Assembly (NCBI RefSeq): GCF_004010195.1 | Contig: NC_057714.1 | Location: forward strand, 24,361,097 to 24,425,096 | From: Chiloscyllium plagiosum | Taxonomy: Eukaryota | Reading direction: 5' to 3' | DNA: 64,000 nt | In this document: in pieces, positions 58 through 46,419 of the stretch | Numbering within the stretch: position 1 is the stretch's first letter | Layout of the letters: every line of letters starts with the position of its first letter | Position numbers and translations under genes: made by a program | The notes under the pieces: model-generated | The model's input: only the letters and a program-made list of their open reading frames with translations | Databases searched by the model: none | What the model was told of the DNA's origin: nothing

Positions 58-85
58 GACGTTTCGGGCATAAGCCCTTCTTCAG
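58..85 (-). ncRNA. Minimal hammerhead ribozyme motif (PLE type)
   Basis: Reverse complement reads CUGAAGA-A-GGGC-UUAU-GCCC-GAAAC-GUC: conserved core, 4-bp stem II, palindromic ACGU mini stem III and GUC triplet. Confidence 0.75.
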
Positions 86-161
86 GAATGAGGAACGTTT
101 GTCCAGCAGGCTACTCCTCCCTACCTATTATCTTAGCCTGCTGGACAAACTTTCCTCATTC

Positions 162-189
162 CTGAAGAAGGGCTTATGCCCGAAACGTC
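162..189 (+). ncRNA. Minimal hammerhead ribozyme motif (PLE type)
   Basis: ctgaaga a gggc ttat gccc gaaac gtc. Predicted cleavage is 3' of C189. Confidence 0.75.
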
Positions 190-289
190 GATTCTCCTGT
201 TCCCTGGATGCTGCCTGACCTGCTGCGCTTTTCCAGCAACACATTTCCAGCTCTGATCTCCAGCATCTGCAGACCTCACTTTCTCTTCT

Positions 290-2290: not shown

Positions 2291-3829
2291 CTCAGGAGAT
2301 CCTTCATAGGAGCCATGATGAAGGCAGAAATTATTTGTTTAAATCTCACTCCCCCCAAAAAAGATGGGAATCCTCCATTTTTTCTGTCAGTGGCGAGAAT
2401 CCTTCATCTTGGCCATGAAAAGCATACGAATCCACCATTACAACCACAAAATGTAAGAAAACATTCTGCTGTACAGCAGCAAAGGAGCAGTAGAACAGCT
2501 ATTACTGTAAAGTAATAGCCTTTTAAACAGGCCCTGTAGTTTCCTACACTTAAAGGGGATGGTAGCCATAATGTTCATCATGAGCAACAGTTTAGACAGT
2601 ACAATGAACTAGCATCAATGGTGCAGTGAATTGGCATGCCCAGACAATATAGCATGCAGCATGCAGATTTGATTTGACAGATCATTGTAACAAAGACCAA
2701 CATCTGTGAGAAAAATAAATAACCTGTCTTTCTTTTAATCTCATTACCTGCTAAATCATTCTTGTTGAGAACTAGCAAACCGACAATGGACTGAATAGCC
2801 TCCTTCTGTGCCATACTGTTTTAATTGTGACTGAAAGATTTTATCTTTCATGGTATGTAAAAGATGTTGTGCACTGATGTATTTAAAAAAAATCCTGAGG
2901 CATCTAGTCTATTATTGAAAGATGTGTATCCATCTTGTAAACTCACATTGGGCAATATTATGTACATTTCCTTTAAAAGTATGCATTAACAAATGTTTAA
3001 CATTCAAAAGATAGCATGTAATGGACTAAAATTTTGTGTTCTCAGAAAAAAGCCATTGCCTACATTATGTGTCATAAATTGACATATTCCTCCCAATAAA
3101 AATGTAAAAAAGTGCTTTAGCTTTTCATCAACCATGACCTTTCACAAAGTAGAGTTGTTTCAGTTTCATTATCAAAATATCAATTGAAAAGAGGGGAATG
3201 GGGGTTAGGCAATTAAGAACAGCACTGGAAGCTTCTGCAAGTGTGCCCATTATCTACATTAGTAACCTGAGATGCTCTCATTTCACTTTTCAATGTACGG
3301 ATAGTGAATCGCTTACTCGATCTCCATCAACATTGCAGAACTTTTCATCAGTGCATTACTCAGTAAGTTGTGACATGATTGCTTTTTGATCTAAATTCCT
3401 GTCTGACATAATGGAGATCGGTGGGACATCAGGACATCTGGAAGCAGTCTTCATGTTCCCAGCTTCCGGGTTTAACTTGGCAATGTTGGGTTATTTGCAT
3501 ATAATCCCCTCAACGGAGTTAGAATGCGGTTAACATACCACAATTGGAGAAATATTTCACAAATTTAATAGCATCTTCACATGCACTCTGAAACTTACCA
3601 GTAAAACTAACATTACAGCAATTCATTTGGCTTATTAAAACTCAGCCAAATACTCAAATAATGTTTATTCTCAGCTGCTTTAGTACCTCTTTGTGAGAAA
3701 GGGTTTTCTCCCAGTTCGTTGGCTGAGAGTTTACCTTCTGCATTATGGAGGTTTTCAGAATTGGAGCTGGATTGGTGACATCTTGATTGCCTTCATTGGC
3801 CAGCACCAACAATGAGCCATTGTTGTCAG

Positions 3830-7056: not shown

Positions 7057-7261
7057 GGAGAAAGTGAGGTCTGCAGATGCTGGAGATCAGAGATGGAAAT
7101 GTGTTGCTGGAAAAGCGCAGCAGGTCAGGCAGTATCTAGGGAACAGGAGAATCGACGTTTCGGGCATTAGCCTGAAGAAGGGCTAATGCCCGAAACGTCG
7201 ATTCTCCTGTTCCCTAGATGCTGCCTGACCTGCTGCGCTTTTCCAGCAACACATTTCCATC
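7057..7261. mobile_element. PLE pseudo-LTR fold-back with hammerhead and 15-bp TSD
   Basis: Exact TSD caaaattactcagta at 7042-7056 and 7262-7276. Inverted arms are centred near 7175, and the tail is on the left arm only. Confidence 0.92.
7172..7199 (+). ncRNA. Minimal hammerhead ribozyme motif
   Basis: ctgaaga a gggc taat gccc gaaac gtc. Confidence 0.75.
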
Positions 7262-18866: not shown

Positions 18867-19205
18867 ATAGAATCCCTACAATATGGAAGCAGGCTATTTG
18901 GCCCATTGAGTCCACAGTGACCCTCCAAAGAGCCTCCAACCCAGACCCATCCCTTTACCCTATCCCTGTAACCCTGCACTTCCCATGGCTAACCCAACTA
19001 GCCAGCATATCCCAGAACACTATGGGCAATTTAGAATGACAATTCACCTAATCTGCACATCTTTGGGCTGTGGGATCAAACCAGAGCACCGGAGGAAACC
19101 CACGCAGACATGGGGAGAATGTGCAAACTCCACACAGACAGTCACCTGGGATTGGAATTGAGCTGGTTTCCTGGAGCAAAACTAACCACTGATCCGCTGT
19201 GGCAC
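18867..19205 (-). mobile_element. HE1-like SINE
   Basis: atagaatccctaca...gagcaccggaggaaacccacgcagaca...ctaaccactga. Confidence 0.9.
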
Positions 19206-19416
19206 TAGCTGGGTGTCTGCCTGACTGGCAGAAGGCAGACAGTGTGGTAAAGGCATCTTCTCCAGGATAGCAGTGAGTGAAGTTCCGTGGGAATCGGTCA
19301 GAGTTGGGACCACAGTTATTCACATTATACATTAACAATCCTGATGAAGGAACTGAAGGAGTCATAAAGATAGGTGGAGGGACAAATAGTGTTGAGGAGG
19401 CTGGGATGGTGCAGGA
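19206..19416 (+). mobile_element. CR1 RT fragment
   Basis: WL..RRQ.V, SVLGPQLFTLYIN and KIGG motifs. Confidence 0.75.
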
Positions 19417-19544
19417 CTGATGGAGGTTCCTGCCCGAAATGTTGACTCTCCTGCTGCTCTGATGCTGCTTGACTTGCTGTGCTTTTTCCAGCTCCACATT
19501 TTATTGACTCTGACTTTCCAGCATCTGCAGTCTTCACTATCTCC
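19417..19544 (+). mobile_element. PLE pseudo-LTR monomer with degenerate hammerhead and tail
   Basis: Starts ctgatggaggttcctgcccgaaatgtt and ends ccagcatctgcagtcttcactatctcc. Confidence 0.8.
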
Positions 19545-19619
19545 AACAGTTTCGTTAAGAATAACTGACAGTGAGCATAAGCAATGAGGAGTTTTCATTA
19601 GTACGAAGTGTGCAAGGTT

Positions 19620-19923
19620 TTTTTAGATTAGATTCCCTACAGTGTGGAAACAGGCCCTTCGGCCGAACAAGTCTACACAGATCCTCCGAAGAGCAATCCA
19701 CCCCCCCTCTGACTAATGCACCTAACACTATGGACAATTTAACATGTCCAATTCACCTGGCTTGCATATCTTTGGACAGTGGGAGGAAACCGGAGCACCC
19801 GGAGGAAACCCACGCAGACATGGGGAGAATGTACAAACTCCACACAGACAGTCACCTGAGGATGGAATAGAACCTGAGACCTTGTGAGGCAGCAGTGCTA
19901 ACCACTGAGCCACCATGCCGCCC
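19620..19923 (-). mobile_element. HE1-like SINE with (TCTAA)n tail
   Basis: ttagattagattccctacagtgtgg...gcagcagtgctaaccactgagccaccatgccg. Confidence 0.92.
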
Positions 19924-20106
19924 ATTATAAACTTAGAGTTTAAGTCTTGGTTGTTAGAGATTGTTGGTAGTTGATTAAAGGGGTCTCTGGTGAATTGAGG
20001 AGAATGTGGTGCAATTGGTGGGATATGAACTTTGAAGATGCCTTTACTGACATTGACCATTTATGTTCAGTCCTTGGTCTTTCCGCACCATTCAGGTCAT
20101 CAAGGC

Positions 20107-20374
20107 TGGTAGGTGAGGACCAATGGGGTTCTGTCCTGGTTGCGATTGGAGGGGCGGGGCTCAAGGGCGGAGGAGTGGAAGTGAAGGAGATGCGGTGGAG
20201 AGCATCGTCGACCACGTCTGGGAGGAAATTGCAGTCTTTGAAGAAGGAGGCCATCTGGGTTGTTCAGTATTGAAACTGGTCCTCCAGGGAGCAGATGCGG
20301 CGGAGACGAAGGAATTGGGAATATGGGATGGCGTTTTTACAGGGGGGAGGGTGGGAGGAGGTGTAGTCTAGATA
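20107..20374 (-). mobile_element. Inverted PLE segment (RT thumb)
   Basis: Reverse complement translates YLDYTSSHPPPCKNAIPYSQFLRLRRICS...MASFFKDCNF, the conserved PLE RT C-terminal motif. Confidence 0.9.
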
Positions 20375-20395
20375 TGCGATGGAGATGAAGGAGTT

Positions 20396-21422
20396 ACCGC
20401 AATTTCCCCCCAGATGTGGTCGACGATGCTATCCACCGCATCTCCTCCACTTCCTGCTCCTCCGCCCTTGAGCCCCGCCCCTCCAATTGCCACCAGGACA
20501 GAACCCCACTGGTCCTCACCTACCACCCCACCAACCTCCAGATACATCGTATCATCCGTCGTAATTTCCGCCACCTCCAAACAGACCACACCACCAGGGA
20601 TATATTTTCCTCCCCTCCCCTATCAGGATTCCAAAAAGACCACTCCCTCTGTGACTCCCTCGTCAGATCCACACCTCCCACCAACCCAACCTCCACTCCC
20701 GGCACCTTTCCCTGCAACCACAAGAAATGCAAAACTTGCGCCCACACCTCCCCCCTTACTTCTCTCCAAGGCCCCAAGGGATCCTTCCATATTTGTCACA
20801 AATTCACCTGCACCTCCACACACATCATTTACTGCATCCGCTGCACTCAATGTGGCCTCTTCTATATTGGGGAGACAGACTGCCGACTTGCGGAACCTTT
20901 CAGAGAACACCTCTGGGACACCGGGACCAACCAACCCAACCACCCTGTGGCTCAACACTTCAACTCCCCCTTCCACTCCACCAAGGACATGCAGGTCCTT
21001 GGACTCCTCCATCACCAGACCATAGCAACACGACGGCTGGAGGAAGAGCGTCTCATCTTCCGCCTAGGAACCCTCCAACCACAAGGGATGAACTCAGATT
21101 TCTCCAGTTTCCTCATTTCCCCTCCTCCCACCTTGTCTCAGTCCCAACCCTCGAACTCAGCACCACCTTCCTAAGCTGCAATCTTCTTCCTGACCTCTCC
21201 GCCCCCACCCCCACTCCAGCCTATCACCCTGACCTTAACCTTCTTCCACCTATCACATTTCCAACGCCCCTCCCCCAAGTCCCTCCTCCCTACCTTTTAT
21301 CTTAGCCTGCTTGGCACACTTTCCTCATTCCTGAAGAAGGGCTCATACCTGAAATGTCAATTCTCCTGCTCCTTGGATGCTGCCTGACCTGCTGTGCTTT
21401 TCCAGCAACACATTTTCAGCTC
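20396..21422 (+). mobile_element. 5'-truncated Penelope-like (Neptune-type) retroelement
   Basis: GIY-YIG ORF, C-rich 3' region and pseudo-LTR with a CpG-decayed hammerhead at 21331-21358. Confidence 0.92.
20416..21174 (+). pseudogene. PLE ORF remnant: Cys-rich linker plus GIY-YIG endonuclease (open for 252 aa, N-terminally truncated)
   Basis: PLVLTYHP, CNHKKCKTC, FTCTSTHIIYCIRCTQCGLFYIGET, FREH, VAQHFN, RLEEERLI.RLGTLQPQGMN. Confidence 0.9.
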
Positions 21423-23003: not shown

Positions 23004-24744
23004 ATTTTATAAATTTCTAGTCCTGGTGACAGCCTGAACGAACCTTTCTGCTAAAGCCTGTCCCGCTGAAATGGAGACACTCCTTCCCACTGTTTCAGCT
23101 ACGCATTGATCTTTCTAGTCGCTTTCAATTCGCAAGTGGCTCAGGTCCCATCTGCTTTGTTCAGTTCGTTCTGAACATCTGCTATTTCTTAGTCAGAAAT
23201 AATATTTCTCCTAAATCATTGGTTGCAAATGGAATTGGGCCTCGCCTTCCCTAGTCCCCCACTACCCACCATTTGCTGGAAGCTTTCTTTTAAGGTATCT
23301 TTAGAACTGGGCTAACAGCTGTGACTGCAGACAACGCTGCCTGTCCCTGTAATACTTGAGTCCCCAGTGAACATAATTTTCTGTTGTCTTTCACCGTCTT
23401 TCTCTCTCCCCTCCTCAGCTACTGTCACCTGCTGAGTATTCTGGCTGTTCCTGTTATATTTAAAAAAACAATAGAACTGGTGAAGACAAGATTGAACAGG
23501 CTGTAATTCTGAAAGAAACCGGGAAATGCTGGAAATGAATAGCAGGTCTCTCGGCGTCATTAAAACTAGACAGGTTCATTGGCCTTGGTCTGTAATCTTC
23601 CCAATAACTACCAGAAGTGTTTAAACGTCAATGAACTGCCTTTCCCTTTCGAGGTGTAGATGGATCTGCTGTCCATTTCGATTAGATTTTCCGGTTAATC
23701 TAAAACATTTGTCTACGACCGGAAAAAAAAGCTGTTACTGGCAAAAAGAAAAACTGATGTTAAAAACGCATACGTGCTTCTGTCAATTAGTTCTGGATAA
23801 GAGCAAAAATAAATGAATTTTTTTTTTGTCTCATACCTCAATTAGTGTTTTAGTGCAGAAACGTTTGTGTGTGAAAAGCCACTTTCTTTTCATCACGAAT
23901 TCATCTTTTGTTGCTTTTCGTGTACCACGAGTTCACGTGAGCATTGGCAGATAATAATTAGTCTCGGCAGGGAGTTTCTTTTAAGATATAATGGCTATTT
24001 TGCAATCTTTTCTTTGAAACCATTTACAAAGCAATTGGAGGATTTGATTCCCACATAGGGGTGGTAGTTGGCCTTCAATAATCATTCTGCGCTGCAGGAG
24101 ATTGCAATAGCTGTAGGTGATTACCATCAGCACAACGTTTAGCAAAGCCATGCAGCAATTTGGTAATATTGAAGTTCATAACGCATTCTTATCAACTTTT
24201 AATTTTCCTAATCCATTCTGCGGTGTCATTCCGAGGTATAAGTCAGTAATACGATCACTTTGGTTTTGCAGAATAATTTAACTACATGAGTAGTCTCGTT
24301 TGATTAAATTCGTAATAAAACTGTTTTTTTTACTTTTTACAGATTTCTTTGCCATTGTTTCCACGTGGCATTGGAGTGTCAGCAATTTCGGGTCCGTTCT
24401 GAGATAATTCAGAATCTGTCAGGAAACGAATTTGCAGTGGCACCCTGGGACGTGAGGAGTGGACCGAGAAACAGGAGTTGCATGTTTAGCCCTCCACCCC
24501 CAGTTCCATTAAACTGCCGCTGAATTGTAAGGAAATGCGCAGGCTGCACTTGCAATTCGACCCTGAAGGGAGCGTAAGACAGGGCGAGGTGTTGGTCCCC
24601 TCATTCTGGGAGCAATCCTGGAGGATGCAAAACTGGATCTCTGCCTGATGTACAGAAGTTACCAGATTCCTGAAGGTGGCTTCCTGGGCATTTCTGGCAT
24701 TCACTACAGAGTTGTACTGAGCTAATTTAGGGTTATACTGACCT

Positions 24745-24862
24745 CCTTTCCTGAGGAACGGTCCCTCGACTCTAAAGGTTAACTCTGATTTCTCTCCACA
24801 GATGCTGCTAGATCTGTTGAGCTTTTCATGCGCTTTCTCCTTTTGTTTCTGCAGTTCTTACG
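24745..24862 (+). mobile_element. Older PLE-terminus family copy (decayed hammerhead-like head)
   Basis: ctgaggaacggtc...aaaggttaactctgatttctctccacagatgctgc. Related copies at 24982-25095(-), 33845-33955(+) and 36610-36722(+). Confidence 0.6.
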
Positions 24863-25095: not shown

Positions 25096-25408
25096 CAATC
25101 AAGAGACATATTGATGTCCAGGACTTCCTGTTTTAATTTGAGGAGGCGTCAATCTATTGTTGATGGAATCGGTACAATGCCCTCAGGGACTGCCGTCACT
25201 TATAATGCATGGCACCATTGTCTCCAAAGAGCTCAGTGCCCCCCACCCCAGATATCTGCTGTTCTCCACACCTCTGACCTTTGAGAGAGAGAGAGGAAGA
25301 GAGCATGTTGCATTGTTTGGGTGATGTGTCTGCCATAGTAAGATAGCTGAAGGTATGTGGAAGTTGTGAGAGCTGGAAGCATTGGTGAATTTGTGAGGGT
25401 TGAGGCAG

Positions 25409-25463
25409 TTGAAACTTTATTGCTGGAACAGCACAGCAGGTCAGGCAGCATCCAGGGAACAGG
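25409..25463 (-). mobile_element. 55-bp PLE pseudo-LTR fragment between 41-bp direct repeats
   Basis: tgctggaacagcacagcaggtcaggcagcatccagggaacagg. The flanks 25368-25408 and 25464-25504 are identical. Confidence 0.85.
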
Positions 25464-26489
25464 GAGAGCTGGAAGCATTGGTGAATTTGTGAGGGTTGAG
25501 GCAGAGCACCTGAATGTTAGGCCTGAGTTCTGATCATTTACTGGTGATAGATAGCATTGTGGTACACTGAACAATGTGAGAAGCTGATAGGCATGAGAAG
25601 GAGCCTACAACTTGGAATGATGTGAACTGGTCCAAAATCTTGTATACCTGAAAAGAGAACTTTAGTTTGGACGAGAATAGTCAGTTTCATGGTATTTCCC
25701 TCTTGTTCTTTCAAGATGCATTCACCTATCAGCGGTGTGAAGTCATTCAGTAATTATTGACCTGGGAGAAGGCTGATAAATGTGCACACAGCAATGCCTG
25801 GGCAGCCCTGCCACAGAGCTGCTGTCTCTACCAAGGAAGACAGAGGAGCCAGTCTCAAACCTGGCACGAGCCCTCAGGCAGAACTGAGACCCCATCCTTT
25901 CCAGCATGGAAATGGTGATTAACTTTACCTCAGCACTTGCAGGTTCAAGGATTCCATTGCAACATAGGTAGAAACTGAAGTGGAAGCTCATCTGATATCA
26001 TGAGCTTGAATCTTGCTGGTGTGCAGGGTCAGATTGCTGCCATTGTTTCAGTGCTTGAAGTGAAATCTAGTGGTCTTGTTATTGCTTTCCCATTGGCCAA
26101 CCCAAACTACTTTCACCCACGTTGCAGTCCAAACCCAGACCCTTAAAACCAATAATTGCTTGAGATCTTTCTGCGAGACTGTCTGCAGTCTCCACTGAAA
26201 CCATGCAGTGGTCATTCATGTGGCACTGCAGAGGAGATGTACAGACGGGCAAAGGCATTACAAGATAATCACTAAGGGATTGCATATTGTAAGTGGTGTT
26301 GGATAAAATTATGGAGTTTTTTGGTGATTTCTTTCATTTTAGAGTTTGGTCAAGAAGACATTGTGATGGTCAGAACAGAGATTGAAGGGTGAAGAAATGT
26401 GTTGCAATGTTGATGTGGAGACAAGATTACAGCAGGATTGGAGTTTGAGTAACTGGTCATAGGCAGCCCAGTTGGAGGTCTTTTTTCTC

Positions 26490-27110
26490 TCTCATTCTCC
26501 TCATCTGCTTCAACCCTGTACTCCTATTCTTCCTCCAACCAAGGTGCCCTTTAAAGTCCTAGTGGCATGAGCTGGGCCCTCATAAGACACATATTATAGA
26601 GGATGACGTGCAGGACCACAAACCTGGAGACTGGTTTATGGTCCTGCACCTCCAACTGGGCTGCCTATGATCAGCTACTCAAACTCCAATCCTGCTGTAA
26701 TCTAGTCTCCATGTCAACATTGCTACACATTTCTCCACCCTTCAATCTCTGTTCTGTCCCTCACATGTGGCAAGTACTGTAAAGCTCCCTTCACTGAGCA
26801 GTCTAGGCAATGGAGCCACTGCTGGAGGATGACAATCACAGCATGCCTCCATTGTCGGCCTACTATCCATGTGTGGTTGGAATGGAAAGCAGCCATGAGT
26901 TAGGTGTACAGGAGGGGACCCTTGTTACCCAAACAATCAGTCTTTTGTTCATCATGTGACTCAAAGCTGGTGGGTGTTGCTGACTGGCAAGATAAATGTG
27001 GTGTGGTTATTTTCAAAATAGTGTCCATTCACTAACATGATCTTCTATGAAGGTACTTGAGAACACAACTCTTGTGATCACAATATGAGGTGTCTTTGAT
27101 CCTTTGTGGA
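26490..27110 (-). pseudogene. PIF/Harbinger transposase relic
   Basis: Collinear minus-strand motifs KIMLVNGHYFENNHTTFIL (cf. V.A.YPGS.HD.FIL), LGNKGPLLYT*LM (LGDKGYPL..WLM), CLDCSVKGALQYLP (CLDRSGGALQY.P) and SRFVVLHVILYNMCLMR (..C.LHN). Confidence 0.75.
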
Positions 27111-27545: not shown

Positions 27546-27669
27546 CAGTTAATAGCTAGATGCATGATATCGGACTTACTTGATAGCCTCTTGTGAGACC
27601 TCAGGTTAGGTCTAAGAGTAAAGGGAAGCGATGGCCCACGATAATTGTAACTGGGCTAGTATTCCATGG

Positions 27670-27820
27670 AAAAAAAGAGGACTTCAGATGCTGGAGATCA
27701 GAATCAAAAACTGTGGTGCTGGAATATTCCTGATGAAGGGTTATACCCAAAACATTAATTCTCCTGCTCCTCAGATGCTGCCAGGCCTGCTGTGCTGTTC
27801 CAGAGCCACACTTTTCGACT
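27670..27820. mobile_element. Older PLE fold-back inserted in a SINE-like repeat (27630-28080)
   Basis: The left arm is the inverted tail. The right arm starts attcctgatgaagggttataccc. Degenerate TSD ctagtattccatgg / ctagcaatccaggg. Confidence 0.8.
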
Positions 27821-28588: not shown

Positions 28589-28680
28589 AATTCTGGATTA
28601 GTGGTGCTGGAAGAGCACAGCAGTTCAGGCAGCATCAGAGGAGCAGTAAAATCGACGTTTCGGGCAAAAGTCCTTCATCA
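28589..28680 (-). mobile_element. PLE pseudo-LTR monomer with 10-bp TSD
   Basis: TSD catggtatag at 28579-28588 and 28679-28688. The reverse complement begins tgatgaaggacttttgcccgaaacgtc. Confidence 0.85.
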
Positions 28681-30304
28681 TGGTATAGGCAATGTAATTA
28701 GCGCTTCCAAAGAGGGTTGTTGGAGGTCACTATTAGAAATGAAGTTTTTTTATTATCAACTTTAATCAGAAGATTGGAAGAACATGAATGAGCTGCTGTC
28801 AGCCTTTGTCAAATCGCCCACACATTCTCCTTACCCATCGCTGCCAGTGATGCTGCCAATCCAAATCAGATCCAGCCTGGAGACACTGGCAACTCATCAC
28901 TATTACTACGACGAGGTTTGAAACTAAATTTCTGAGCCTCAAGTCTACGATAGGGAAATGCCTTTGGGCGAGATATTAAGCTGAGGCCCTGTCTTCCAAC
29001 CCAGGTGACATAAATGATCCCAGGGCACTAGTTGAAGAAGAGTAGGAAAATTCTACTCCTATCCTGGCCAATATTTTTCCTCAAGCAGCATCACTAACAC
29101 ACATTATCTGGTGAAATGAGTCATCGGTGTACTCAATCACTGAACAAATTTGTCTTATCTTTCAGCCTGCAAATACTTGAGTGAAAACCAAAGTATTGTA
29201 CTTTCCAATAACTTGGCCATCCAAGTTATCTCTATGAAACAAATAAAACTTCAGTATGTGAATTTTAAATGAACCATATTGAGAATATAAGGAAAACCTT
29301 TGAAAGAATTTCCAAACTTTTCTTTTGATAACCAGAAAATAATTGCTTGCCATTTTTACTATCAGTCTGTATGAGTGACCACATTGTCATGAAATTTATG
29401 GATTATTTCTTGGTTAATAATTGAACTTTGTATTTATTATTTCCTAGACAAATGAGAGAATCAAAATAAAATAGATGAATGGCCAGTCTATTCCCCATAA
29501 TCAGCAAAATTATTTCTGACAGATAACCAATACCAAGAAATACAGATCTGAAAATCAAGGTCTGTGAAATTCCACTGATTAATTACATACTAGATTTTTT
29601 TTGTCATGGTTGAATGGAACAGGACTTGTTGATTTTGTGCTGTTACAATGATTAGTGGTCTTATGTAAGACATTCTATTTAAACATGTAAATGTGTTTAT
29701 ACTAATATCTTGAAAAGTGCTCAACCATGAAAGTAGTTTCAGAAGGTAAGTGTTCGCAATGCTGCAGTCAAATAAGCTAATTTAAGATGTATTAGGTGAA
29801 CCCTAAGTGTAAATAAATGACATCCTCTGCATTTCTTTCTACTTGTGGTTTTAATTCAACTTAGCTTCCTTAGTTTGATGTGAGACAGAATCAGCAAAGT
29901 GTGTTATTTGGTTAATGCTGCCTTGGCCCTTATTGGTGATAATTTACATTTATTATCTTTACTACAGCAGTATTTGTCAAATTTGGCCCTGATGTTTTGC
30001 AGAATGCTTGTTTTAGGGTAAACATAAATTATTGTCTACTTTGAAGCATTAAACTTTCATTCAATACAGTATAAAAAGGGAGAAGAGAATGAACAAGGAT
30101 AAAATGCTGATCATATTTTTCTTAATTTATTTTTACTGTTGTCAAAAAGAAGTATTGGCAGAGCCTTTCATCAGAACAATTTGCAAGAAGTACCAACATA
30201 GAGGGAAGAGAACACTTATACTGTATGAGACGGGAGTGCTGATTGGTTTGCAAGCAGACTGTGATTGGTAGAATATTGCCATGGAGAATGTACTAGTTAC
30301 ATTC

Positions 30305-30540: not shown

Positions 30541-30933
30541 TAAATGAACAGTCACATGAGCTCCTCTTCCTTGACAGTCTGGTGGAAAAATTGGCAAGGA
30601 GCTTCTCTGTGCCAAATCTACCTTTTCTGTTCGATATGCACTTTGGGATTCCTAGTCTTAAGACTTACATTGTTTAAAGCCCGCCTGTAGTTCTAGAAGA
30701 AGAGCTTATGGAAGTTAATCGAAAACAGCATCCTCCAGACATTGGCACATGGAGGCCCCTGACGAGGACATCAGTGGGATATCTCTACATAGTTGTCCGG
30801 ATTCAGATGTCTTGCTCAAACTCCTTGGAACACATACTATAGCAGTGTGGCAGCAACAGAGAGAGAATCCCCCTCCGCCGCCTCCCAGTCCCAACAACAG
30901 CATTGCATGATGGTTGATGATGCAGACATCTTA

Positions 30934-31202
30934 CAGAATCCCTACAGTGTGGAAGCTGACCATTCGGTATGTTGAGTTCACATTGACCACCTGAAGAGCA
31001 TCCAACCCAGACTTATCCTGCATCCCCCGTAACCCTACATTTCCCATGGCTAATTCACCCACCCTGCACATCTTTGGACTGTGGAAGGAAACCCATGCAG
31101 ACACAGGGAGAATGTAAAACCTCCACGTAGATAGTTGCCTGAGGCGAGAATCGAACCCGGGTCCCTGGCACTGAGGCAGCAGTGCTAACCACTGTGCCAT
31201 CC
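30934..31202 (-). mobile_element. HE1-like SINE
   Basis: gaatcgaacccgggtccctggcactgaggcagcagtgctaaccactgtgcc. Confidence 0.9.
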
Positions 31203-32203
31203 AACTTATTGTCCAAGGTGTGAAGTAAGCTGCTCCTTGTTCAGGCTATGGGACTTTGAAACATGATTGGAGCTTTGGCAACTAGGGCTAATCTTTCCAC
31301 TCTCCACAACATTGCTTCTGCCTTGCAGCCTTTAGTAGGATTGATATATAATGTTGAATGATATTATAAAGATTGCCTGAGGTCAGGATGTTAAGTCGAC
31401 AGGTAGGTCAAGATGTGAGGTCCACATACAGTATATTTTAATACAAATGTCCTTCACCTGTACTGTGAGAGTATCTGTTTAATGCTGTTACCCTTCAAAG
31501 GGCCTAACAGTGCACAAAAGTGAAGCCTTATCCTCAGAGAATAAAACACTTACTCAGCCACAGATCACATTTTGTGGAGTGAGTCACAGGCTTAGCTTCT
31601 CAGTCCAGCTGACACCATAAACCTGCATGTTCCTTTCTGGCTTGCCATCTCTGTCAACCTCCACCTGCTTTGATCTTCCACACAATCCCACCCAACCTGC
31701 ACATTGCCCATGGCTGACCATGTCCAAGCCCTGGACTGATATTAGAGACTGATGGAGGAAGGCAGGTCACCACCACTTTCTCAACGGCAAGTAGGATGGG
31801 CAATAAATGCTGGTCAGCCAAAGATGTCTACTTCCCACAAGTGAATATAAAAAATGGCTCCCTACTCTGTTAGAAGCTACTCTCCTTAGACCTTGCATCA
31901 GTACCATTTGATTGAAGCACATGTGGTGTGTCAGTCACATCAGCTGCTGACAAATGGTGTAGCTGTAACACTGACGTAGTATAGTGCCATACAACATCAT
32001 GTTCACCCACTTGATTGATCATTGCTGACAACCATGACAAGCTATTTAGCTTTGCATCTGTGCTAAAAGGCAAGGCAAAACCAAGGTATTGTGACCCTGT
32101 AAATTCTGAATAAGATGCTATTGTCTTCGTCATTCATGGGCTGGGAAAAGTCACCGAGTAGCAGAATGGTGATTATCCTGAACTCTTCTGAGAAATAAGT
32201 CTA

Positions 32204-33031
32204 TGTCATCCAAAACTGAAATCAGTAGAAAAACAAGTAAAGGTTTTCAGACCTGGGCACAAAAGGGAGGCATCTGGTTGTTTTTGGACAAAGGGACACA
32301 AACACAGACATACACAGAGACAGAAATAGCTGCTGTTATGAAGAGCAGAGAAAAGGATGGCTTTTTTGTGTTACTCACCAAACTGCATGCTGGTGAGGAC
32401 TAGCTCTCTCTTCAAAGATGCAGGTTTTGTGATAACTTAAGGAATAAAGAACTACCAGTGTGGTCCTTGATGCTGGAAGTTAGTTTGGGGATACTCAGAA
32501 GCGGTGTGGAACAACTATTAAAGGACAGTGGGAGATGCAACCTGGTGACCGGGAGAAAGGTGCCTTAAGAAAATCTGGGAGGAGTTTAAACCTTAATCTT
32601 TAGGGATTACTTATCTCCTGTAAGTGTGATGTAAAGAAGTTATCATAAATATACTGGATGTGCTGGCTGATGTTTTTAAGTCAGTGCCTGTTAAGTCATG
32701 TCCTGAAGAAGGGCTTATGCCCGAAACGTCGATTCTCCTGTTCCTTGGATGCTGCCTGACCTGCTGCGCTTTTCCAGCAACACATTTTCAAGTCCTGTCT
32801 GATGTCAATTTTAGATTCCTTGTTCTTGTAAAAATGTCTTAAAACATGAAATCTTGCCCTTTGGTCTTTTATGTTGGTTGCTAGGAATATCACTTTTTTA
32901 AAACAAGCTATTGGTCTCTAAGGGTATTATGAGAGCTTCAGATCTCCTTCTTTTACCATTGGCTTCAAGTTTGGTTCCTGCAGGATGTCTGTAAGTTTGG
33001 GATTGGATCTGCCCAGCAACAAGTGATGACA
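32204..33031. mobile_element. Probable solo LTR (carries a PLE insertion)
   Basis: Termini TGTCATC...GATGACA form a 7-bp inverted TG..CA pair, and the block is noncoding. No matching TSD. Confidence 0.4.
32701..32790 (+). mobile_element. PLE pseudo-LTR monomer with intact hammerhead (32703-32730)
   Basis: ctgaagaagggcttatgcccgaaacgtc. TSD aagtcatgtc / aagtcctgtc (9 of 10 match). Confidence 0.88.
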
Positions 33032-33844: not shown

Positions 33845-33955
33845 ATTTGAAACATTAACTCTGTTTCTGTCTCACACATGTTGCCAGACCTGCTGAATTT
33901 TTCCAGTGCTTTCTGTCTTTATTTCAGATCTCCAACATCAGTAGCACTTTGCTTC
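33845..33955 (+). mobile_element. Older PLE-terminus family copy
   Basis: gaaacattaactctgtttc...gccagacctgctgaatttttccag...ttcagatctccaacatc. Confidence 0.65.
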
Positions 33956-36079
33956 TATATCTATTTATTGAAGACATGTTTGGATGTAGTGAAAAACCTG
34001 AATTGGGAATTTCCTAGCTGCATGTAAGTAATACTAAATGACGCAATTAACATTCTTGGAAGATGCTAATAAGTCGATGAATTGTTTTTAACCTGGTTAC
34101 AAATTCTGCTTGAGCAGGATGGATTTCCCAGATATTGGTAAGGTACCAGCATTCGAGGTGATTTTGAGCAGCTGTTTGAATGGGTAAATAAATGCCATTG
34201 TCCCATTTAAATAAAATCTCACTTATTACAGCTACTGTTTCAGATCCCTCTGTCAAATCTTTTGCAGGCAATGCTTTTATAGATCAGTAACAGACAGAGA
34301 AGGAGGCAGAAGAGATTAAGAACACTGCACTCAGATGAGTGCATGACTGTCAGCGATGCAAGATAATATTCCGCACTAATATTTTGATGATTCACTAAAT
34401 ATGAAATGTAGCAAAGGAGATCTATAGGCCACCAGTCTTCCAGATGCTCATCCATATTTTGCACATCAACCCATTGAATTCCAGCTGATGTCGACATTCC
34501 TGATGAAACAGGTGACAGGGCAAGTTGGTGTTCAGTATGTAATAATGAGCGATGTAAAAAGTGGTACAAATCATTCAATTTGATGTGGCATTATTTTAAA
34601 AAAATTAACAAATGTAATATTATGTTAAATACTGCTTTGCATACTCTTGATGAATTACAATTTCATTCATGTATTCCTACTTCTTATACATTATGCAACC
34701 TGTGTGTTATCAGTAGATGTAGATACAAGTTGCTCAGTTCCCTGCCCTGATGATGCCTGATATATTTTGGGCCTTTGACCTTTAGGTTTTGGATCTGTTG
34801 AGGACCTTACAAAAGAGTGTTCTACCTACAGCAGTGTAAGGACAAGCTCAGCCACTGGGCAAGATGAGACAGCACAGAGGCAGTGACTGGGCTCAGGTAG
34901 CAGGTGAGAATGGATACTCTTTGAATGGAGTTCATACATTCACATCCGGTTTTACCAATATCCTATTCTGAAGCAGTGCTGTGTCATGCCTATCACTTTG
35001 TACCAGACCAAACAAGTGAAGTTCCGTGGTGTGTTGTAGGGCTATGCAATCTGTGATTCTGTTCACAGTAGCAGTCAAGTTGGCATCCAACATCTGCAGA
35101 GGGAGCACGGACCCATTTGGGAGCTAGTTTTGAAGTTCCTCAAGGATAACCACTCCTACCACAGCAGACATTCTCTCAATCCCCTGCACCACCACTGCTT
35201 CCTTCATCTCCTGTTCTATAACGCAGAATGGTACATGACACATCCATCAACACCGACATTTACACCTCCAACATACTCCTCCTGATGTTTAGTATCTGTG
35301 TCCAGCTTGGTAAGACAACGTCTCTGTGTCTGTGTAAACCTTTACTCCCTTGTAAGGTGTAAATCACTGAATGAAGACAAAATCCACTTGTTAGGTATGA
35401 GTATCTGTGCTAGTGCCTGGTTGTCTGTGCTGCGATGGTGCACCCTTAGAAGGAATCGGCTTTACTGAAGAATCATCCTCATGGTCATCCTGAGACACTA
35501 GTTATATCTGTGAAGATCCTGGGAGATGAAACAAACAGACCTGAATCAGTTCTGGCAAAGTCACAATCTTGAAGAGTATCAAATGCAGTCTTACAGAGTT
35601 CAGTCATTGATGAAATAAAGTCAGCACAGGTATGACTGAGATACTTGTAACTCTGTCATCAACGACCTGGTAATTTCTCCTCTTTCTGTTCTGGAGTGAG
35701 GGATGCAGCTATACTGTTTACTTCCAAAACATCCTCTGCTTTCAGCTATGCTGCTGGTTCCAATCCACTTCCGATCCTGACCCTCTCTTTTGCATTTTGT
35801 ACTTCCTCCTTCAACAAGGATCAGAATACAAGTTTGTAAAGGAGTGAAGATGAGTTAATGATGGATGTAGTGCCTTCTGTGAGGGTGTGTTTGAGAAATA
35901 TATTTCACATTGTTTAAAAAATATTAACTTTGGATGGATCAATGGGGAGATGTTTATATAAAATGAATGTGAATGCAGTTGAAATTTGATTGAGACTGAG
36001 GGATATAAATGTGTACAAGTACTAATTCAGGGGGAAAAAATGTAGTCTAAAAGCACAAGCTGCAGTTCAGTCAGCAAAC

Positions 36080-36609: not shown

Positions 36610-36722
36610 GAACAAAGACATTAGCTCTGCTTTCTCTCCACAAATGCTGTCAGAACTGCTGAGTTTCTCCACCAATTCTGATTTTGTTTCAGATTTCCAG
36701 CATCTGCAGTTCTTTGTTTCTT
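36610..36722 (+). mobile_element. Older PLE-terminus family copy
   Basis: ctctgctttctctccacaaatgctgtcagaactgctgagtttctcc...ttcagatttccagcatctgcag. Confidence 0.7.
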
Positions 36723-38016: not shown

Positions 38017-38425
38017 AGACAATAGACAATAGGTGCAGGAGTAGGCCATTCTGCCCTTCGAGCCTGCACCACCATTCATTATGATCATGGCTGATCGTCC
38101 TTAATCAGTATCCTGTTCCTGCCTTATCTCCATAACCCTTGATTCCACTATCCTTGAGAGCTCTATCCAACTCTTTCTTAAATGAATCCAGAGACTGGGC
38201 CTCCACTGCCCACTCGGGCAGAGCATTCCACACAGCCACCACTCTCTGGGTGAAGAAATGTCTCCTCATCTCTTGCACTCCCTCAATAGCCAGAATGTCT
38301 TTCCTCAAATTTGGAGACCAGAACTGCACACAATACTGCAGGTGTGGCCTCACCAGGGCCCTGTACAGCTGCAGAAGAACCTCTTTGCTTCTATACTCAA
38401 TCCCTCTTGTTATGAAGGCCAGCAT
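38017..38425 (-). mobile_element. Young CR1 3' fragment with internal deletion
   Basis: ORF 38105-38425 has LYRALVRPHLQYCVQFWSP...IEGVQ fused directly to EMRRHFFTQRVV. Confidence 0.92.
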
Positions 38426-38639
38426 GAAGGAAAGACATTCTCCCTTGCTTGTGCTTTTTCTACCTTTTTCACCTGATAGGAACTGGTTCTTCCTCTTCTA
38501 CAGGAAATTGTTTGGTAGGGGTATGTTGGTCAGATTGATTGATTGTATTCTGATGGTTTAAAATAATATGGGTAAGAGTAGTACCACTAATAAAATGTAT
38601 CACGAAGGACAATACATTACTTAAAATAATTAAGCAGTT

Positions 38640-39416
38640 AATGGAAATGCAGGATTGAATAAAGAGAGAAAGGGAGCCTTAGGGCAGTTACTGGGAGCTC
38701 AAAACTGCAGAAGCTCTAGCGGAGTATAATATGTGCAACAATAAACTTAAAAAAGGAAATTAGAAGAGCAAAAAGGGGGCAGGAATGAATAATGGCACAT
38801 AAAATAAAACAAAGTCCTAAGTTGTTTTAGAAGTACAGTAAGGATAAAAGGATAATGAGGGAAAGAGTAGGAATTATTAAGGACCACAGTGGTAATTTGT
38901 GCATGGAGCCAGAAGACACAAATAAAGATCCAATAGAATAATTTGTGTCAATGTTCACTAGTGAGAGGGACGATGTGGGTATAGAAATCAGAGAGAAGGA
39001 CTGTGATAGACTTAAAGAAATTAGCAGAGACAGCAAGGAGATCCTGAGTAGTCTACCACACTTTAAGATTGATAAATGTCATGACCAATGAAATGTTGAA
39101 TGTGGTAAGAGAGGGAAAAGCAGAGGAGCTTACAAAAATTTTCAATTCCTCTCTGGCCAGAGGAACTTTCCAAAAAAATGTGGTACTGTTATTCAAGAGG
39201 GAACAATGGATACACCAAGAAACTATTTGGACAGTCAGCCTAACCTCAGAGGTGGGAAACTATCAGAAGCTATTCTGAAGGAGAGAATTAAACTGCACTT
39301 GGTGAGATGGATTAATCAAGAAGTCAGCAAGATTTTGTTAAGGGGAAGTTACGTCTGACCAACCTGATTGAATGTTTGAAGGGGTAACCGGGTGTGCAGA
39401 TGAGGGTAATGAATTT
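38640..39416 (+). mobile_element. Old CR1 ORF2, first half (continues at 42606)
   Basis: KKEIRRAKRG, NVV.LFK, VSLTS.VG and CLTNLIE.FEGVT..ADEG motifs. Confidence 0.8.
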
Positions 39417-39966
39417 AGAACATAGAACAATACAGTGCAAACATGCCCTTTGGGCCGATGTTGCGCCGACCTGTGAACTATTCTCAGCTTGTCCCCAACA
39501 CTATCCCAAAATCATCCATGTGCTTATACAAGGATTGTTTAAATCTCCCTAACGTGGCTGAGTTGACTACATTAGCAGGTAATGCATTCCACTCCCTTAT
39601 CACTCTCTGTGTAAAGGACCTACCTCTGACATCTGTCTTAAATCTATCACCCCTCAATTTGTAGTTATGCCCCCTTGTACATGCTGCCGTCATCCTCCTA
39701 GGAAAAAGACTTTCACTGTCTACCCTACTTAATCCTCTGATTATCTTGTATGTCTCTATCAAATCCCCTCTTAGCCGCCTTCTTGCCAATGAGAACAGGT
39801 TCAAGTCTCTCAGCCTTTCCTCATAAGACCTTCCCTCCAGACCAGGCAACATCCTGGTAAATCTCCTCTGCACCTATTCCAATGCTTCCACATCCTTCCC
39901 CAAATATGGGGATCAGAGCTGTACACAATATTCCAAGTGTGGCCGCACCAGCGTTTTGTATAGTTG

Positions 39967-40133
39967 NNNNNNNNNNNNNNNNNNNNNNNNNNNNNNNNNN
40001 NNNNNNNNNNNNNNNNNNNNNNNNNNNNNNNNNNNNNNNNNNNNNNNNNNNNNNNNNNNNNNNNNNNNNNNNNNNNNNNNNNNNNNNNNNNNNNNNNNNN
40101 NNNNNNNNNNNNNNNNNNNNNNNNNNNNNNNNN
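39967..40133. other. Assembly gap (N run)
   Basis: Run of n characters. Confidence 1.
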
Positions 40134-41039
40134 NCTGCCTTCTTTCAGAAAGCCAGTTTCTAATCCAAGCCACTAAATCACCCTCAATTCCATGCCTCTG
40201 CATTTTCTCCAACAGGCTACCATGTGGAACGTTATCAAAGGCTTTACTGAAGTCCAAGTATACCACGTCAACTGCCCTAACCTCATCTACATGCTGAGTC
40301 ACCTTCTCAAAAAAACTCAATGTGGTTTGTGAAACATGACCTGCCCTTGATGAACCCATGTTGACTATCTGAAATCAAATTGTTGCTTGCAAGATGATTA
40401 TAAATCTTATCTCTTATAATCCTTTCCAAAACCTTTCCTACAACAGAAGTAAAGCTCACTGGTCTATAATTACCTGGGTCATCTCTACTGCCCTTCTTAA
40501 ACAAGGGCACAGCATTTGCAATCCTCCAGTCCTCTGGTACCAAGTCTGTAGACAATGACAACTCAAATATCAAAGCCAAAGGCTCTGCTATCTCCCTAGC
40601 TTCCCAGAGAATCCTCAGATAAATCCCATCTGGCCCAGGGGACTTGTCTACTTTCACTCCTTCTAGAATTGATAGCACCTGTTCGTAACTAACCTCAATC
40701 CTTTCTAGTCTAAAATCTCATACCTCATTCTTCTCCTCCACAATGTTCTCCTTTTCCTGAGTGAAAACTGATAAATGTTCATTTAGCACCTCTCTGGTCT
40801 CCACACTCAACTTCCCACTTCTGCCTTTGGCCCTATTCCTACCCTAATCATCCTTTTATTCCTTACATACCTATAGAAAGCTTTTTTTTTAGATTAGATT
40901 AGATTAGATTACTTACAGTGATGTTCATTTAGCACCTCTCTGGTCTCCACAGGGTCCACACTCAACTTCCCACTTCTGCCTTTGGCCCTATTCCTACCCT
41001 AATCATCCTTTTATTCCTCACATACCTATAGAAAGCTTT

Positions 41040-41361
41040 TTTTTTAGATTAGATTAGATTACTTACAGTGTGGAAACAGGCCCTTCGGCCCAACAAGTCC
41101 ACACCACCCCGCCAACGCGCAACCCACCCATACCCCTACATTTACCCCTTACCTAACACTACGGGCAATTTAGTGTGGCCAATTTACCTGGCCTGCACAT
41201 CTTTGGACTGTGGAAGGAAACCGGAGCACCCGGAGGAAACCCACGCAGACACGGGGAGAACGTGCAAACACCACACAGTCAGTCACCTGAGGCAGGAATT
41301 GAACCCGGGTCTCTAGCGCTGTGAGGCAGCAGTGCTAACCACTATGCCACCGTGCCGCCCA
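41040..41361 (-). mobile_element. Young HE1-like SINE with (TCTAA)n-A tail inside a CR1
   Basis: Full head ...gcggcacggtggcatagtggttagcactgctgcctcacagc on the minus strand, with many CpGs retained. Confidence 0.93.
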
Positions 41362-42605
41362 CTTTAGGGTTCTCCTTTTATTCTATTTGCTAAAGACTGC
41401 TCATGTCCTCTCTTTGCTCTTCTTAACTCTCTTTTTAAATCCTTTCTAGCTGATCTGTAACTCTCCATCGCCTCATCTGAACCATCTTGCCTCATCAACA
41501 CATAAGCCGCCTCCTTCTTCGTAAAAGAGATGCAATTTCTGTTGTAAACCATGGTTCCCTTACCTTATCACTTCCTCCCTGCCTGACAGGGACATACCTA
41601 TGAAGGACACGCAATATCTGTTCCTTAAACCAGCTCCATATTTCCATTGTCTGCATCCCCTGCATTTTGCTACCCCATTCTATGCATCCTAATTCTTGCC
41701 TAATCGCATTATAATTGCCCTTGCCCCATCAATAACTCTTGACCTGTGGCTTGTACCTATCCCTTTCCATCACTAAACTAAATATAACTGAATTATGGTC
41801 ACTCTCTCCAAAGTGCTCACCTACAACTAAATCAAACACCTGGCCTGGTTCATTACCAAGCACCAGATCCAGGGTGACCTCCCTTCTTGTCGGCCCTTCA
41901 ACATACCGTGTCAGGAAACCATTCTGTACACATTGAACAAAAACTGATCCATTCGACCTACTAGAGTTATAGCATTTCCAGTCAATGTTGGGGAAGTTAA
42001 AGTCCCCCATAATAACCACCCTCTTCCTTTCACTCCTACCCAGAATAATTTTGCTAATCCTCTCTTCCACCTCCCTGGAACTCTGCAGAGGCCTATAAAA
42101 AAAAACTCCAAGCAGTGTGACCTCTCCTCTCCTATTTCTAACCTCAGCCTACACTACCTTAGTAGACGAGTTCTCATCAAAAGTTTTCTTTTCCACTGTT
42201 ATACTATTGTTGACGAACTAGGCCACACCTCCCCCTCTTTTACTGCCTTGCCTGTTCTAAATGAAAGATCTAAACCCTGGAACCTGCAACATCCATTCCT
42301 CACCCTGTTCTATCTATGTCTCTGAAATGGCCACAACATCGAAGTCCCAGGTACCTATCCATGCTGCAAGCTCACCTACCTTATTTCGGATACTTCTGGC
42401 GTTGAAGTAAACACACTTCAAACCACTTCGCTGTCTGCCAGCACATTCCTGTGACCCTAAAATCCTGTCCCTGTCCTTCCTACTCTCATCCTCTTGTTCA
42501 CTGCAACTACACCTCCAGTTCCCATCCCCCTGCTGAGCTAGTTTAAACCCACCCAAATCGCACCAGCAAATTTTCTACCCAGGATATTAGTACCCCTCTG
42601 GTTCA

Positions 42606-43725
42606 TCTATTTGGTCTTGAAGCAAGGCTTTTATAAGGAAGGCTTAGAATGCAAGTTAGAGCTCGGGGAGGCAAGGAAATTTAACTAATTGGTTCTAGAA
42701 TTGGATGAGTCTGAGAAAGCAGAGGGTGATGTTTGAGGGGTTTCCTTGTGACTGGAAGCCTGCGTCCAATGGGGTCCCACTGGGTTCACTGAGGCCCTTG
42801 TTATTTATGGTATATGAATGGTTTAGACTTGATTGTAGAAGGGTTGATTAAGTATGCAGATGATCTGGAAATTGGTGGGGTGGTAAATAATGAGGAGGAT
42901 AGTCTTAGATTATAGGAGGATAAAGGCAGGCTGGTCAGATGGGGTGATCAGTGACAAATGGAATTCAATCTGGATAAGTGTGAGGTGATGCACTTGGGTA
43001 GGACAAACAATGCAAGGGAAAACATGATGAACGGTAGGATCCTGGGAAGTCTGAGACCTTAGTGTGCACATACACTGGTCCCTGAAGGTATCAGGATAGG
43101 TAGATAAAGTGCTTTAAAAGACACATGCAAGTGTTGCCTTTATGAGCCAAGGCATAGAGCTTTAAGAGTGGGGCAATTTGCTGGAACAGTACAAAACGTT
43201 GGTTAGGCCACAGCTAGAGTACTGTGTGCATTTCTGGAATACAGATAATAGGAGGGATGTGACAGCACTGGAGAGGGTGCAGAGGAGATTTACCAGGTGC
43301 TGGTTGGATAGAGAGTTTTAGTTATAAAGAGAGATTGGGTAGATAGAGGTTATTTTCATTGGAGCAGAGGAAACTGACAGAAGACATAATTGAAAACTAT
43401 TACATTTTGACAGGATAGATAGAAATCTTTGCGCTTGTTGGAAGGATCAATAACCAGGGGGCATAGGTTTAAGGGGCAGGGGATATGAGGTAAACTATTT
43501 TTCACCTGGAGGGTGGTGAGCATTTGGAACTCAGTGCCTGTAAGGGTGGTTGAGGTAGAAACACTCAGAATTTAAGAAGTATTTAGATGTGCACTTGTGA
43601 CGCAAGGCTACGGGCCAAATGTTGGAAGTGGGATTAGAATAGTTAGATGGTTGTTTTTGAATGGCACAGACTTGGTAGCTGAAAGGCCTTTTACATTGCT
43701 GTAGGACTCTATGGCGATGACTCTA
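42606..43725 (+). mobile_element. Old CR1 ORF2, second half and 3' end
   Basis: KYADDLEIGG, MEFNLDKCEVMHLG, KTLVRPQLEYCVHFW, LERVQRRFTR. Confidence 0.85.
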
Positions 43726-46418: not shown

Positions 46419-46419
46419 T

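Follow-up and report, generated by a model that had tools for sequence, protein, structure and literature searches.

The window analysed here, a 64-kb stretch of the Chiloscyllium plagiosum genome taken as a whole, harbors a series of short repeats that contain hammerhead ribozyme cores, which raises the question of what these repeats are, how they were inserted, and whether they act as ribozymes in their present positions. The first-pass annotation of this DNA regarded them as a dispersed family of tiny Penelope-derived elements and, collectively, as a very large reservoir of latent self-cleaving motifs. The analysis described below indicates that they are probably short inserted copies (stubs) of the 3′-end of a hammerhead-bearing Penelope-like element (PLE), the scattered copies being likely inert as ribozymes.

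Copies of the Family in the Window

The family is represented in the window by 11 loci comprising 16 arms; the inserted end-stubs span 60–290 bases, and the ten small loci occupy approximately 2.3% of the window. In the following list and throughout the text, “ref” denotes positions in the copy located at 113–296 of the 64-kb window (+ strand), pLTR denotes the pseudo-LTR, and “free sites” are the positions that a hammerhead leaves free, including N7 and loop II.

1–113, − strand: inverted arm equivalent to ref 134–246, clipped by the window edge (113-bp inverted repeat 1–113/134–246, 99% complementary)
58–85, − strand: intact core inside the inverted arm
114–287, + strand: sense arm, consisting of the last ~45 nt of the 3′ UTR (114–157), the 5′ strand of stem I (158–161), the core, the downstream pLTR, and the long 3′-end
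162–189, + strand: intact minimal type I core with C3–A9, base 9.1, 4-bp stem II, TTAT loop, GAAA, and ACGT stem III; predicted cut after C189
247–287, + strand: optional ~40-nt tail between the short (242–250) and long (285–287) 3′-ends
7058–7259, both strands: head-to-head insertion; long arm (−) from ref 171 without a complete core, short arm (+) from ref 161 with the intact core 7172–7199; target duplication 7037–7056/7257–7276 (19/20)
19417–19543, + strand: old solo stub from ref 162 with the long end and 5 changes outside the free sites; a target duplication was sought here and not found
20103–20383, − strand: inverted piece of the PLE reverse transcriptase (RT) region, corresponding to residues 162–255 of the shark relative P0002 (tblastn; inverted repeats)
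20389–21174, + strand: 3′ part of the PLE frame, with the end of the RT region, the Cys linker CNHKKCKTC, and the GIY-YIG endonuclease (FYIGET)
21175–21422, + strand: PLE 3′ UTR with the short end; decayed hammerhead at 21331–21358 with two CpG changes and one stem II change
25407–25463, − strand: stub without a core, from ref 196, short end; perfect 41-bp target duplication 25368–25408/25464–25504
27669–27816, both strands: head-to-head insertion; tail-only long arm (−), decayed-core arm (+) from ref 158 with the short end; borderline target duplication (11/14)
28592–28681, − strand: solo stub from ref ~163 (C3 lost), short end, 10-bp target duplication
32703–32788, + strand: solo stub from ref ~160–162, short end, with the sole intact core lacking an antisense arm (32703–32730); borderline target duplication (9/10)
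54716–54843, − strand: solo stub from ref 153–156, long end, one stem II change
56745–56945, both strands: head-to-head insertion; long arm (−) from ref 156 with the decayed core 56836–56863, short arm (+) from ref ~174; 14-bp target duplication
61674–61806, both strands: head-to-head insertion; short arm (−) from ref 156, with the core 61736–61763 bearing one CpG change in stem III, and tail-only long arm (+); 14-bp target duplication

Three much older relatives with a different tail were also found (24737–24827, 33855–33957, and 36621–36721), the first of which retains a decayed hammerhead with a longer stem II; therefore, at least two PLE waves left such stubs. An inverted repeat at 26362–26765 (118-nt arms, 92% complementary, 168-nt spacer) was considered as a family member and rejected, its sequence being unrelated. 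Another short dispersed repeat family is present in several copies (941–1186, 19040–19929, 30928–31216, and 41049–41366), many fragments that we take to be CR1/L2-like LINEs lie within 38105–46600, and the window contains two N gaps (39967–40134 and 45930–46221).

Sequence State of the Hammerhead Cores

The four cores reported as intact in the first-pass annotation fit the motif CTGA(A/T)GA-A-GGGC-N4-GCCC-GAAAC-GTC exactly (58–85 on the − strand; 162–189, 7172–7199, and 32703–32730 on the + strand), and the seven decayed versions also lie where it had placed them (19417, 21331, and 27730 on the + strand; 28654–28681, 54810–54837, 56836–56863, and 61736–61763 on the − strand). The cores at 58–85 and 162–189, counted separately at that time, are both real, but they form the arms of one inverted repeat and not two insertions. 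A 25-nt hammerhead pattern allowing up to 3 mismatches gave 9 matches in the window and 0 in 100 shuffles, and a general minimal-hammerhead descriptor gave 6 sites in the window compared with a mean of 0.03 (maximum 1) in 200 shuffles; the number of hammerhead motifs is far above chance. An Rfam scan of the window gave no hammerhead match, and its 4 weak hits were miRNA models below threshold (MIR6136, mir-680, mir-3127), which arise because the inserted copies form hairpins. A viral contig set scanned with the hammerhead pattern gave 0 matches.

Stem II is composed of GGGC/GCCC, including the G10.1–C11.1 pair, and A169 is an extra base between positions 9 and 10.1. The palindromic, loopless stem III noted previously is present as ACGT at 185–188, and stem I is weak, as had been stated, with 3 of 4 pairs and a U–U mismatch in the window copies. 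The variant 192 T>A, which completes all four stem I pairs, accounts for 10, 25, and 37% of the depth in runs X19, X15, and X1, respectively, these values being read depth and not copy number; the organism of the three runs is coded and may not be the individual or species of the window.

Eleven arms span the core; leaving the free sites aside, 4 of them are intact, the same proportion (4/11) retaining the core boxes CUGANGA, GAAA, and UH, and the other 7 carry 1–5 changes in the core or stems. Among the 9 non-reference window copies, changes were found at 14 of 54 free sites, 9 of 45 core/stem CpG sites, and 10 of 153 other fixed sites. The core carries three CpG pairs, and in the raw reads of run X19, 11–16% were changed at each of the CpG places 181, 182, 187, and 189 among the changes listed. 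The variation at N7 and loop II that had been attributed to well-preserved copies is only partly present in them: all five loop variants exist in the window, but N7 is A in all four intact copies, the loop differs among these only at 7172, and the N7 A/T difference and the loops TCAT, TTGT, and TTTT come from copies with 1–5 changes outside the free sites.

Conservation and Covariation of the Motif

At the level of subfamilies, the concentration of variation on N7 and loop II is borne out by run X15, in which 21 variant changes at a frequency of at least 4% were identified; within 162–189, they affect only N7 (166) and loop II (174–176), so that the 4 variable places are all free sites. This corresponds to 4 of the 6 free sites and 0 of the 22 fixed sites (Fisher p = 0.0007), although the subfamily changes are not independent events. 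The excess conservation of the core among subfamilies that the first-pass annotation anticipated holds for fixed relative to free sites (0/22 vs. 4/6), but is not significant relative to the tail (0/22 vs. 10/96, p = 0.20).

Further comparison was made with metagenome contigs (2 of 64 parts), which yielded 124 pattern matches in 122 loci; by estimate, the contigs contain approximately 4100 stretches with minimal hammerheads. None of the 122 loci belongs to the window family beyond the 28-nt motif (3 loci), and 9 of the 122 were matched by a PLE protein query. For covariation, the 111 of 124 outside matches with 40-nt flanks were grouped into 47 sequence clusters. In stem II, pairs 3 and 4 were Watson–Crick in 38 and 33 of the 47 clusters (14 and 12 when shuffled), and stem I pairs 1–3 were Watson–Crick in 33, 34, and 27 clusters (shuffled 16, 14, and 12); 0 of 5000 shuffles reached these counts. 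For stem I pair 4, the count was 17 of 47 (shuffled 15), and the outside clusters thereby show a 3-bp stem I to be apparently normal. Because the clusters are related and the core is fixed by the pattern, the pairing demonstrates covariation and not independent events. Given the covariation in both stems and the restriction of subfamily variation to N7 and loop II, selection on the hammerhead motif is likely to have acted in source elements or their lineages.

The Parent Element

The derivation from Penelope proposed previously can be read directly from the insertion at 20103–21422, in which an RT/GIY-YIG frame ends in the hammerhead at 21331. This core follows the GIY-YIG frame and the 3′ UTR, i.e., it lies in the pLTR, as expected from the earlier assignment of the motif to the minimal type I hammerheads of PLEs. 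Because the last 140 nt of this RT/EN-coding copy (21283–21422) match 114–253 with 90.7% identity, the small elements correspond to the 3′ pLTR end of an RT/GIY-YIG PLE.

The best matches of the frame at 20389–21174 are proteins of Rhincodon (62% identity) and Chiloscyllium (67% identity), with 9 hits among 800 candidates, and tblastn aligned the frame to residues 212–458 of P0002 with 67% identity. Scores with the Pfam GIY-YIG model are at or near the cut-off, and this piece by itself reached only E = 0.25. Among the long relatives of the Chiloscyllium protein (93 hits), the 3 proteins scanned contain RVT_1 and GIY-YIG, and a Cys linker occurs near the end in 86 of the 93; in the window frame, this is CNHKKCKTC at residue 109. 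A Cys linker between RT and EN is described as a feature of the Neptune and Nematis clades (PMC8557442), and, judged from its C-terminal GIY-YIG and Cys linker, the parent element looks Neptune-type.

The long copy carries a 5′ inversion (20103–20528) that duplicates ~130 bp of RT-coding sequence (arms 20104–20235 and 20396–20528). Its outer end is without pLTR or tail, unlike the other inverted arms, and looks like the product of internal priming. An open frame from the ATG at 208 to 288 (+) covers the whole tail (27 codons) and is a likely source of spurious gene calls. The possibility that the tail encodes a PLE N-terminus was rejected, the frame at 208–288 being open but without alignment to P0010, the sole full-length relative compared.

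Anatomy of the Insertions

The first-pass description of the element has to be extended by inverted arms, two 3′-ends, target duplications, and clustered 5′-ends, none of which it included. The copies end at either ref ~242–250 or ref ~285, approximately 40 nt apart, and loose-end peaks are present at ref 242–246 and 285 in runs X19, X15, and X1. Five loci are head to head; at the 4 of these whose outer ends are both visible, a long end is always combined with a short one, for which the chance is ~1 in 16. Arm lengths and junctions differ at every locus, arm starts ranging from ref 114 to 251, and the stubs retain bases on both sides of the predicted cut site.

Target duplications are clear of background at 5 of the 10 testable loci (10, 14, 14, 20, and 41 bp), borderline at 2, and absent at 3; among 60 random controls, 59 scored ≤8 and one scored 23. 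The 41-bp duplication around a 57-nt stub (25368–25504) is perfect and far beyond the 8–10 bp quoted for rotifer Penelope insertions, and it points to a widely staggered double cut. An inverted 5′-truncated copy with a 30–40-bp tail at one end is described for PLE insertions in published work (PMC8557442, PMC3846280), and the head-to-head arms, optional ~40-nt tail, and 10–41-bp duplications of the window match these insertions. A metagenome contig (L015/L016) shows an inverted 130-nt arm together with an RT/EN frame and a sense hammerhead whose core is near-identical to that of the window (L015 positions 1005–1133 and 3432–3587). Three outside metagenome families also have two 3′-ends, ~30–35 nt apart.

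Miniature inverted-repeat transposable elements (MITEs) were rejected as a classification, the arms being unequal and the duplications variable (10, 14, 14, 20, and 41 bp) in place of fixed terminal inverted repeats and a duplication of fixed length. Hallmarks of SINEs were likewise sought: the copies have no A-rich 3′-end, and no Rfam tRNA, 5S, or 7SL match was found in the window.

The Shared 5′ Edge

Among the 15 short arms, 8 start at ref 156–163 and none at 186–193 (p ~8e-5, scan-corrected), and 8 of the 11 core-spanning arms start 0–6 bases before the core, with none at the cut site. These 5′-ends were read by eye with 2–3 nt of microhomology doubt, and the arm at 54837 may start at 153, which would reduce the first count to 7 of 15. 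In run X19, the depth rises 4.3-fold from ref 148–154 to 162–168; across the cut site, the factor is 1.05. Ref 158 is the starting point of 184 reads with mixed flanks. Part of the step in depth may reflect subfamilies with a diverged upstream UTR (loose ends at 167, agreement 0.6).

The sequence at ref 156–161, TCATTC, fits the initiator consensus; its +1 would be A158, which is also the first base of stem I. In Drosophila Penelope, the pLTR promoter is internal (PMC2377424). Run-off cDNA synthesis is favored as the cause of the edge because of these three observations, and an uncleaved RNA is favored as its template because a cleaved template would give starts at 190. We give close to an even chance to the proposal that the edge represents run-off cDNA from uncleaved RNA beginning at the front edge of the ribozyme. 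Three outside families inspected by eye show no 5′ edge, their copies mostly extending further upstream, and a universal initiator before the core was rejected, TCAKT occurring at that place in only 5 of 47 outside clusters; because of these two observations, the 5′ edge is not general. A candidate downstream promoter element lies ~2 nt off the usual spacing. It was rejected, with 5 of 8 bases matching the RGACGTGY of Drosophila Penelope (PMC2377424).

The main competitor to run-off synthesis replaces only this last step: the edge would arise by processing or stalling at the DNA level, through an endonuclease cut at the ATT at ref 158–160 or through RT halted at a protein-bound border past the ribozyme. 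This is a possibility that we entertain tentatively. An ATT is located exactly at ref 158–160, and the Poseidon enzyme is reported to prefer 5′-ATT-3′ in its own pLTR (PMC11167929), although this preference was measured for another clade; the spread of arm ends over ref 156–163 and the match of only 5 of 8 bases to the downstream promoter element (PMC2377424) are also in its favor. The fit of TCATTC to the initiator consensus, with its +1 coinciding with the first base of stem I, argues against it. As for RT, stalling at stem II would give ends near 181–190, where 0 of 15 arms start, and it was rejected as the cause of the edge, no arm starting at 186–193 either. An intron of Drosophila Penelope ends at stem I (PMC4209133), and a 3′ splice site was considered here and rejected, there being no AG before 158 and the arm starting at 134 including the AG at 135–136.

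Proposed Origin of the Stubs

Under the explanation that we consider probable, namely insertion of short copies of the PLE 3′-end, the element’s own RT would initiate internally, either ~55 or ~95 bases downstream of the predicted cut, and would run through the uncleaved ribozyme. By analogy with another PLE clade studied in vitro (PMC11167929), the endonuclease would cut both target strands, each cut end would prime cDNA synthesis from one or the other of these sites, and the resulting pair of cDNAs would be joined through their far ends, head to head. The ribozyme would be kept functional only in source elements, where folding may depend on two pLTR copies per transcript or on bound PLE protein, and the inserted copies would decay neutrally, CpG sites first.

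A more specific reading, which is conceivable but to which we would not commit, is that the stubs constitute a genome-wide record of PLE “strong-stop” cDNAs, combining an initiator-like RNA start, dual priming, and head-to-head joining. In that case, the RNA would start at the initiator-like TCATTC, four bases ahead of the core; a complex of two enzymes, using the two tail sites of a single uncleaved RNA, would prime both strands of the broken target, and head-to-head joining of the run-off products would follow. If this is true, the start of the RNA, the two RT starts, and the uncut state of the ribozyme would be recorded at the single-base level in hundreds of thousands of copies, and the hammerhead would be held off during copying. 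Abundant copies that retain the ribozyme uncut and terminate at its front edge provide a direct handle on how the hammerhead contributes to the life cycle of PLEs.

It is improbable that the stubs form an independent non-autonomous family (SINE-, MITE-, or retrozyme-like), with fixed short masters and an RNA unit of their own and a borrowed PLE enzyme. The shared 5′ edge and the high density would fit such a family, as would a few contigs of run X1 with head-to-tail joints (ref 245 to 159 and 287 to 160), from which it follows that short stub tandems exist somewhere and are possible dimer partners; pLTR-derived tandem retrozymes are, moreover, reported in vertebrates, including one chondrichthyan (bioRxiv 10.64898/2026.07.22.740005). 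Against this, the window contains no tandem units, each locus has its own arm lengths and junctions (starts from 114 to 251), the RT/EN-coding copy has the same end, and the 5′ edge is common to both N7 subfamilies; duplications of 10 to 41 bp are unlike those of a MITE, and the cut site would be expected to form the boundary of any retrozyme unit.

Predicted Activity of the Dispersed Copies

The claim of a very large reservoir of latent self-cleaving motifs is not upheld in that form, with 4 of 11 cores intact and 3 of these 4 predicted to be occluded. A read-through transcript of any of these three would already contain the antisense arm, upstream of the core, and in the predicted read-through folds (−187 to −244 kcal/mol for the three arm-paired cores), the stem II probability is 0.00 for 58–85, 162–189, and 7172, compared with 0.90–1.0 without the antisense arm. 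For the core at 32703, the predicted stem II probability is 0.96–0.99, but target DNA makes up part of its stem I strand; the predicted stem I probability is ≤0.07 in all seven folds. Minimal hammerheads are reported to show no cleavage as monomers and low cleavage as dimers (PMC4209133; review PMC6765202), and the Anolis Poseidon ribozyme is described as cleaving only with the element’s protein (PMC11167929). A dimer partner is missing for the window copies because they are dispersed and not tandem; same-strand intact copies are 7 and 25 kb apart.

RNA reads of run X19 contain family sequence in either orientation (3188 of 12,955,460 records), and 95% of these reads continue into dissimilar flanking sequence, the pattern expected if many loci are read through. 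Read ends do not pile up at 189/190 in X19, nor are molecule ends concentrated at any other place, which is a weak negative because a poly(A) single-cell library of this type seldom keeps RNA ends. On ref 113–296, the commonest changes listed for X19 include A>G, at 12 places, and T>C, at 11; editing of hairpins is possible, and it is indistinguishable from differences between copies without matched DNA.

Taken together, the sequence state and the predicted folds make it likely that most window copies are inert as ribozymes, because they either carry mutations or are predicted to be trapped in long hairpins. The opposite reading, that dispersed intact cores cut read-through host transcripts as monomers or by pairing between copies, is very unlikely: the 4 intact cores in 64 kb, the RNA reads in both orientations (X19), the free 32703 core with its predicted stem II probability of 0.96–0.99, and one subfamily with a full 4-bp stem I speak for it, but 7 of 11 cores are damaged, 3 of the 4 intact ones are predicted to be occluded with a stem I probability of ≤0.07 in every fold, intact copies on one strand are separated by 7 and 25 kb, minimal hammerheads in the literature were uncleaved as monomers and poorly cleaved as dimers (PMC4209133) or required the PLE protein (PMC11167929), and, more weakly given that the library seldom keeps RNA ends, X19 has no read-end pile at 189/190. 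The likelier effect on the host would not be cutting but the production of many 65–113-bp near-perfect RNA hairpins, which may be substrates for editing or Dicer.

Comparison with Known Systems

Earlier publications already describe the ribozyme type, its occurrence as dispersed single motifs and as pairs on opposite strands, the inverted arm, and the tail. A search of openly accessible articles yielded, among the papers listed, no account of the shark family and none of its 5′ edge. Minimal hammerheads have been reported in Xena, Poseidon, and Neptune elements of fishes (PMC4209133; Cervera and De la Peña, 2014), and the window copies resemble the minimal hammerheads of PLEs (PMC4209133) in having a type I core, an extra base between 9 and 10.1, the G10.1–C11.1 pair, and a palindromic loopless stem III, and less clearly in the short stem I, as well as in occurring mostly as single dispersed motifs with some opposite-strand pairs. 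In the sections of that paper considered here, sharks are not named and a shared 5′ edge is not described. The density differs: 11 cores (4 intact) in 64 kb, in this one window, extrapolate far above the 4,000 and 9,000 such motifs given there for coelacanth and Xenopus, respectively. Extrapolated from the same window, the 4 intact cores correspond to ~2 × 10^5 in a genome of 3–4 Gb, the whale shark genome being estimated at 3.73 Gb (PMC8455134); if the density holds genome-wide, this would exceed every load of these motifs so far reported in vertebrates.

Animal non-LTR retrozymes (bioRxiv 10.64898/2026.07.22.740005; PMC7229834) are similar in being non-coding, hammerhead-bearing, and related to pLTRs. 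They are, however, head-to-tail tandems with at least 2 consecutive hammerheads, whereas the window copies are single or head to head, and no array of at least 2 head-to-tail units with complete hammerheads is present in the window.

Neptune-type units, as described by Craig et al. (2021; PMC8557442) and Arkhipova et al. (2013; PMC3846280), share with the present family the GIY-YIG domain, the Cys linker, and strong 5′ truncation, and also the adjacent inverted truncated copy, the 30–40-bp tail at one end, and the variable target duplication. Unlike these units, most of those in the window consist of only the last 60–130 bases, with 5′-ends that are not spread out but concentrated at the edge of the ribozyme.

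For the Anolis Poseidon element PAc in vitro (Frangieh et al., 2024; PMC11167929), the tail is reported to equal the distance between two internal RT start sites, both target strands to be cut and extended, ribozyme mutants to insert normally, and unprocessed RNA to be the main template. PAc belongs to another clade, and its ORF starts in stem II, whereas the window frame starts at 208 and does not align with the one relative compared. The window copies resemble PAc in that two 3′-ends delimit a tail downstream of the hammerhead, the uncut ribozyme is kept, and both target strands would be able to prime.
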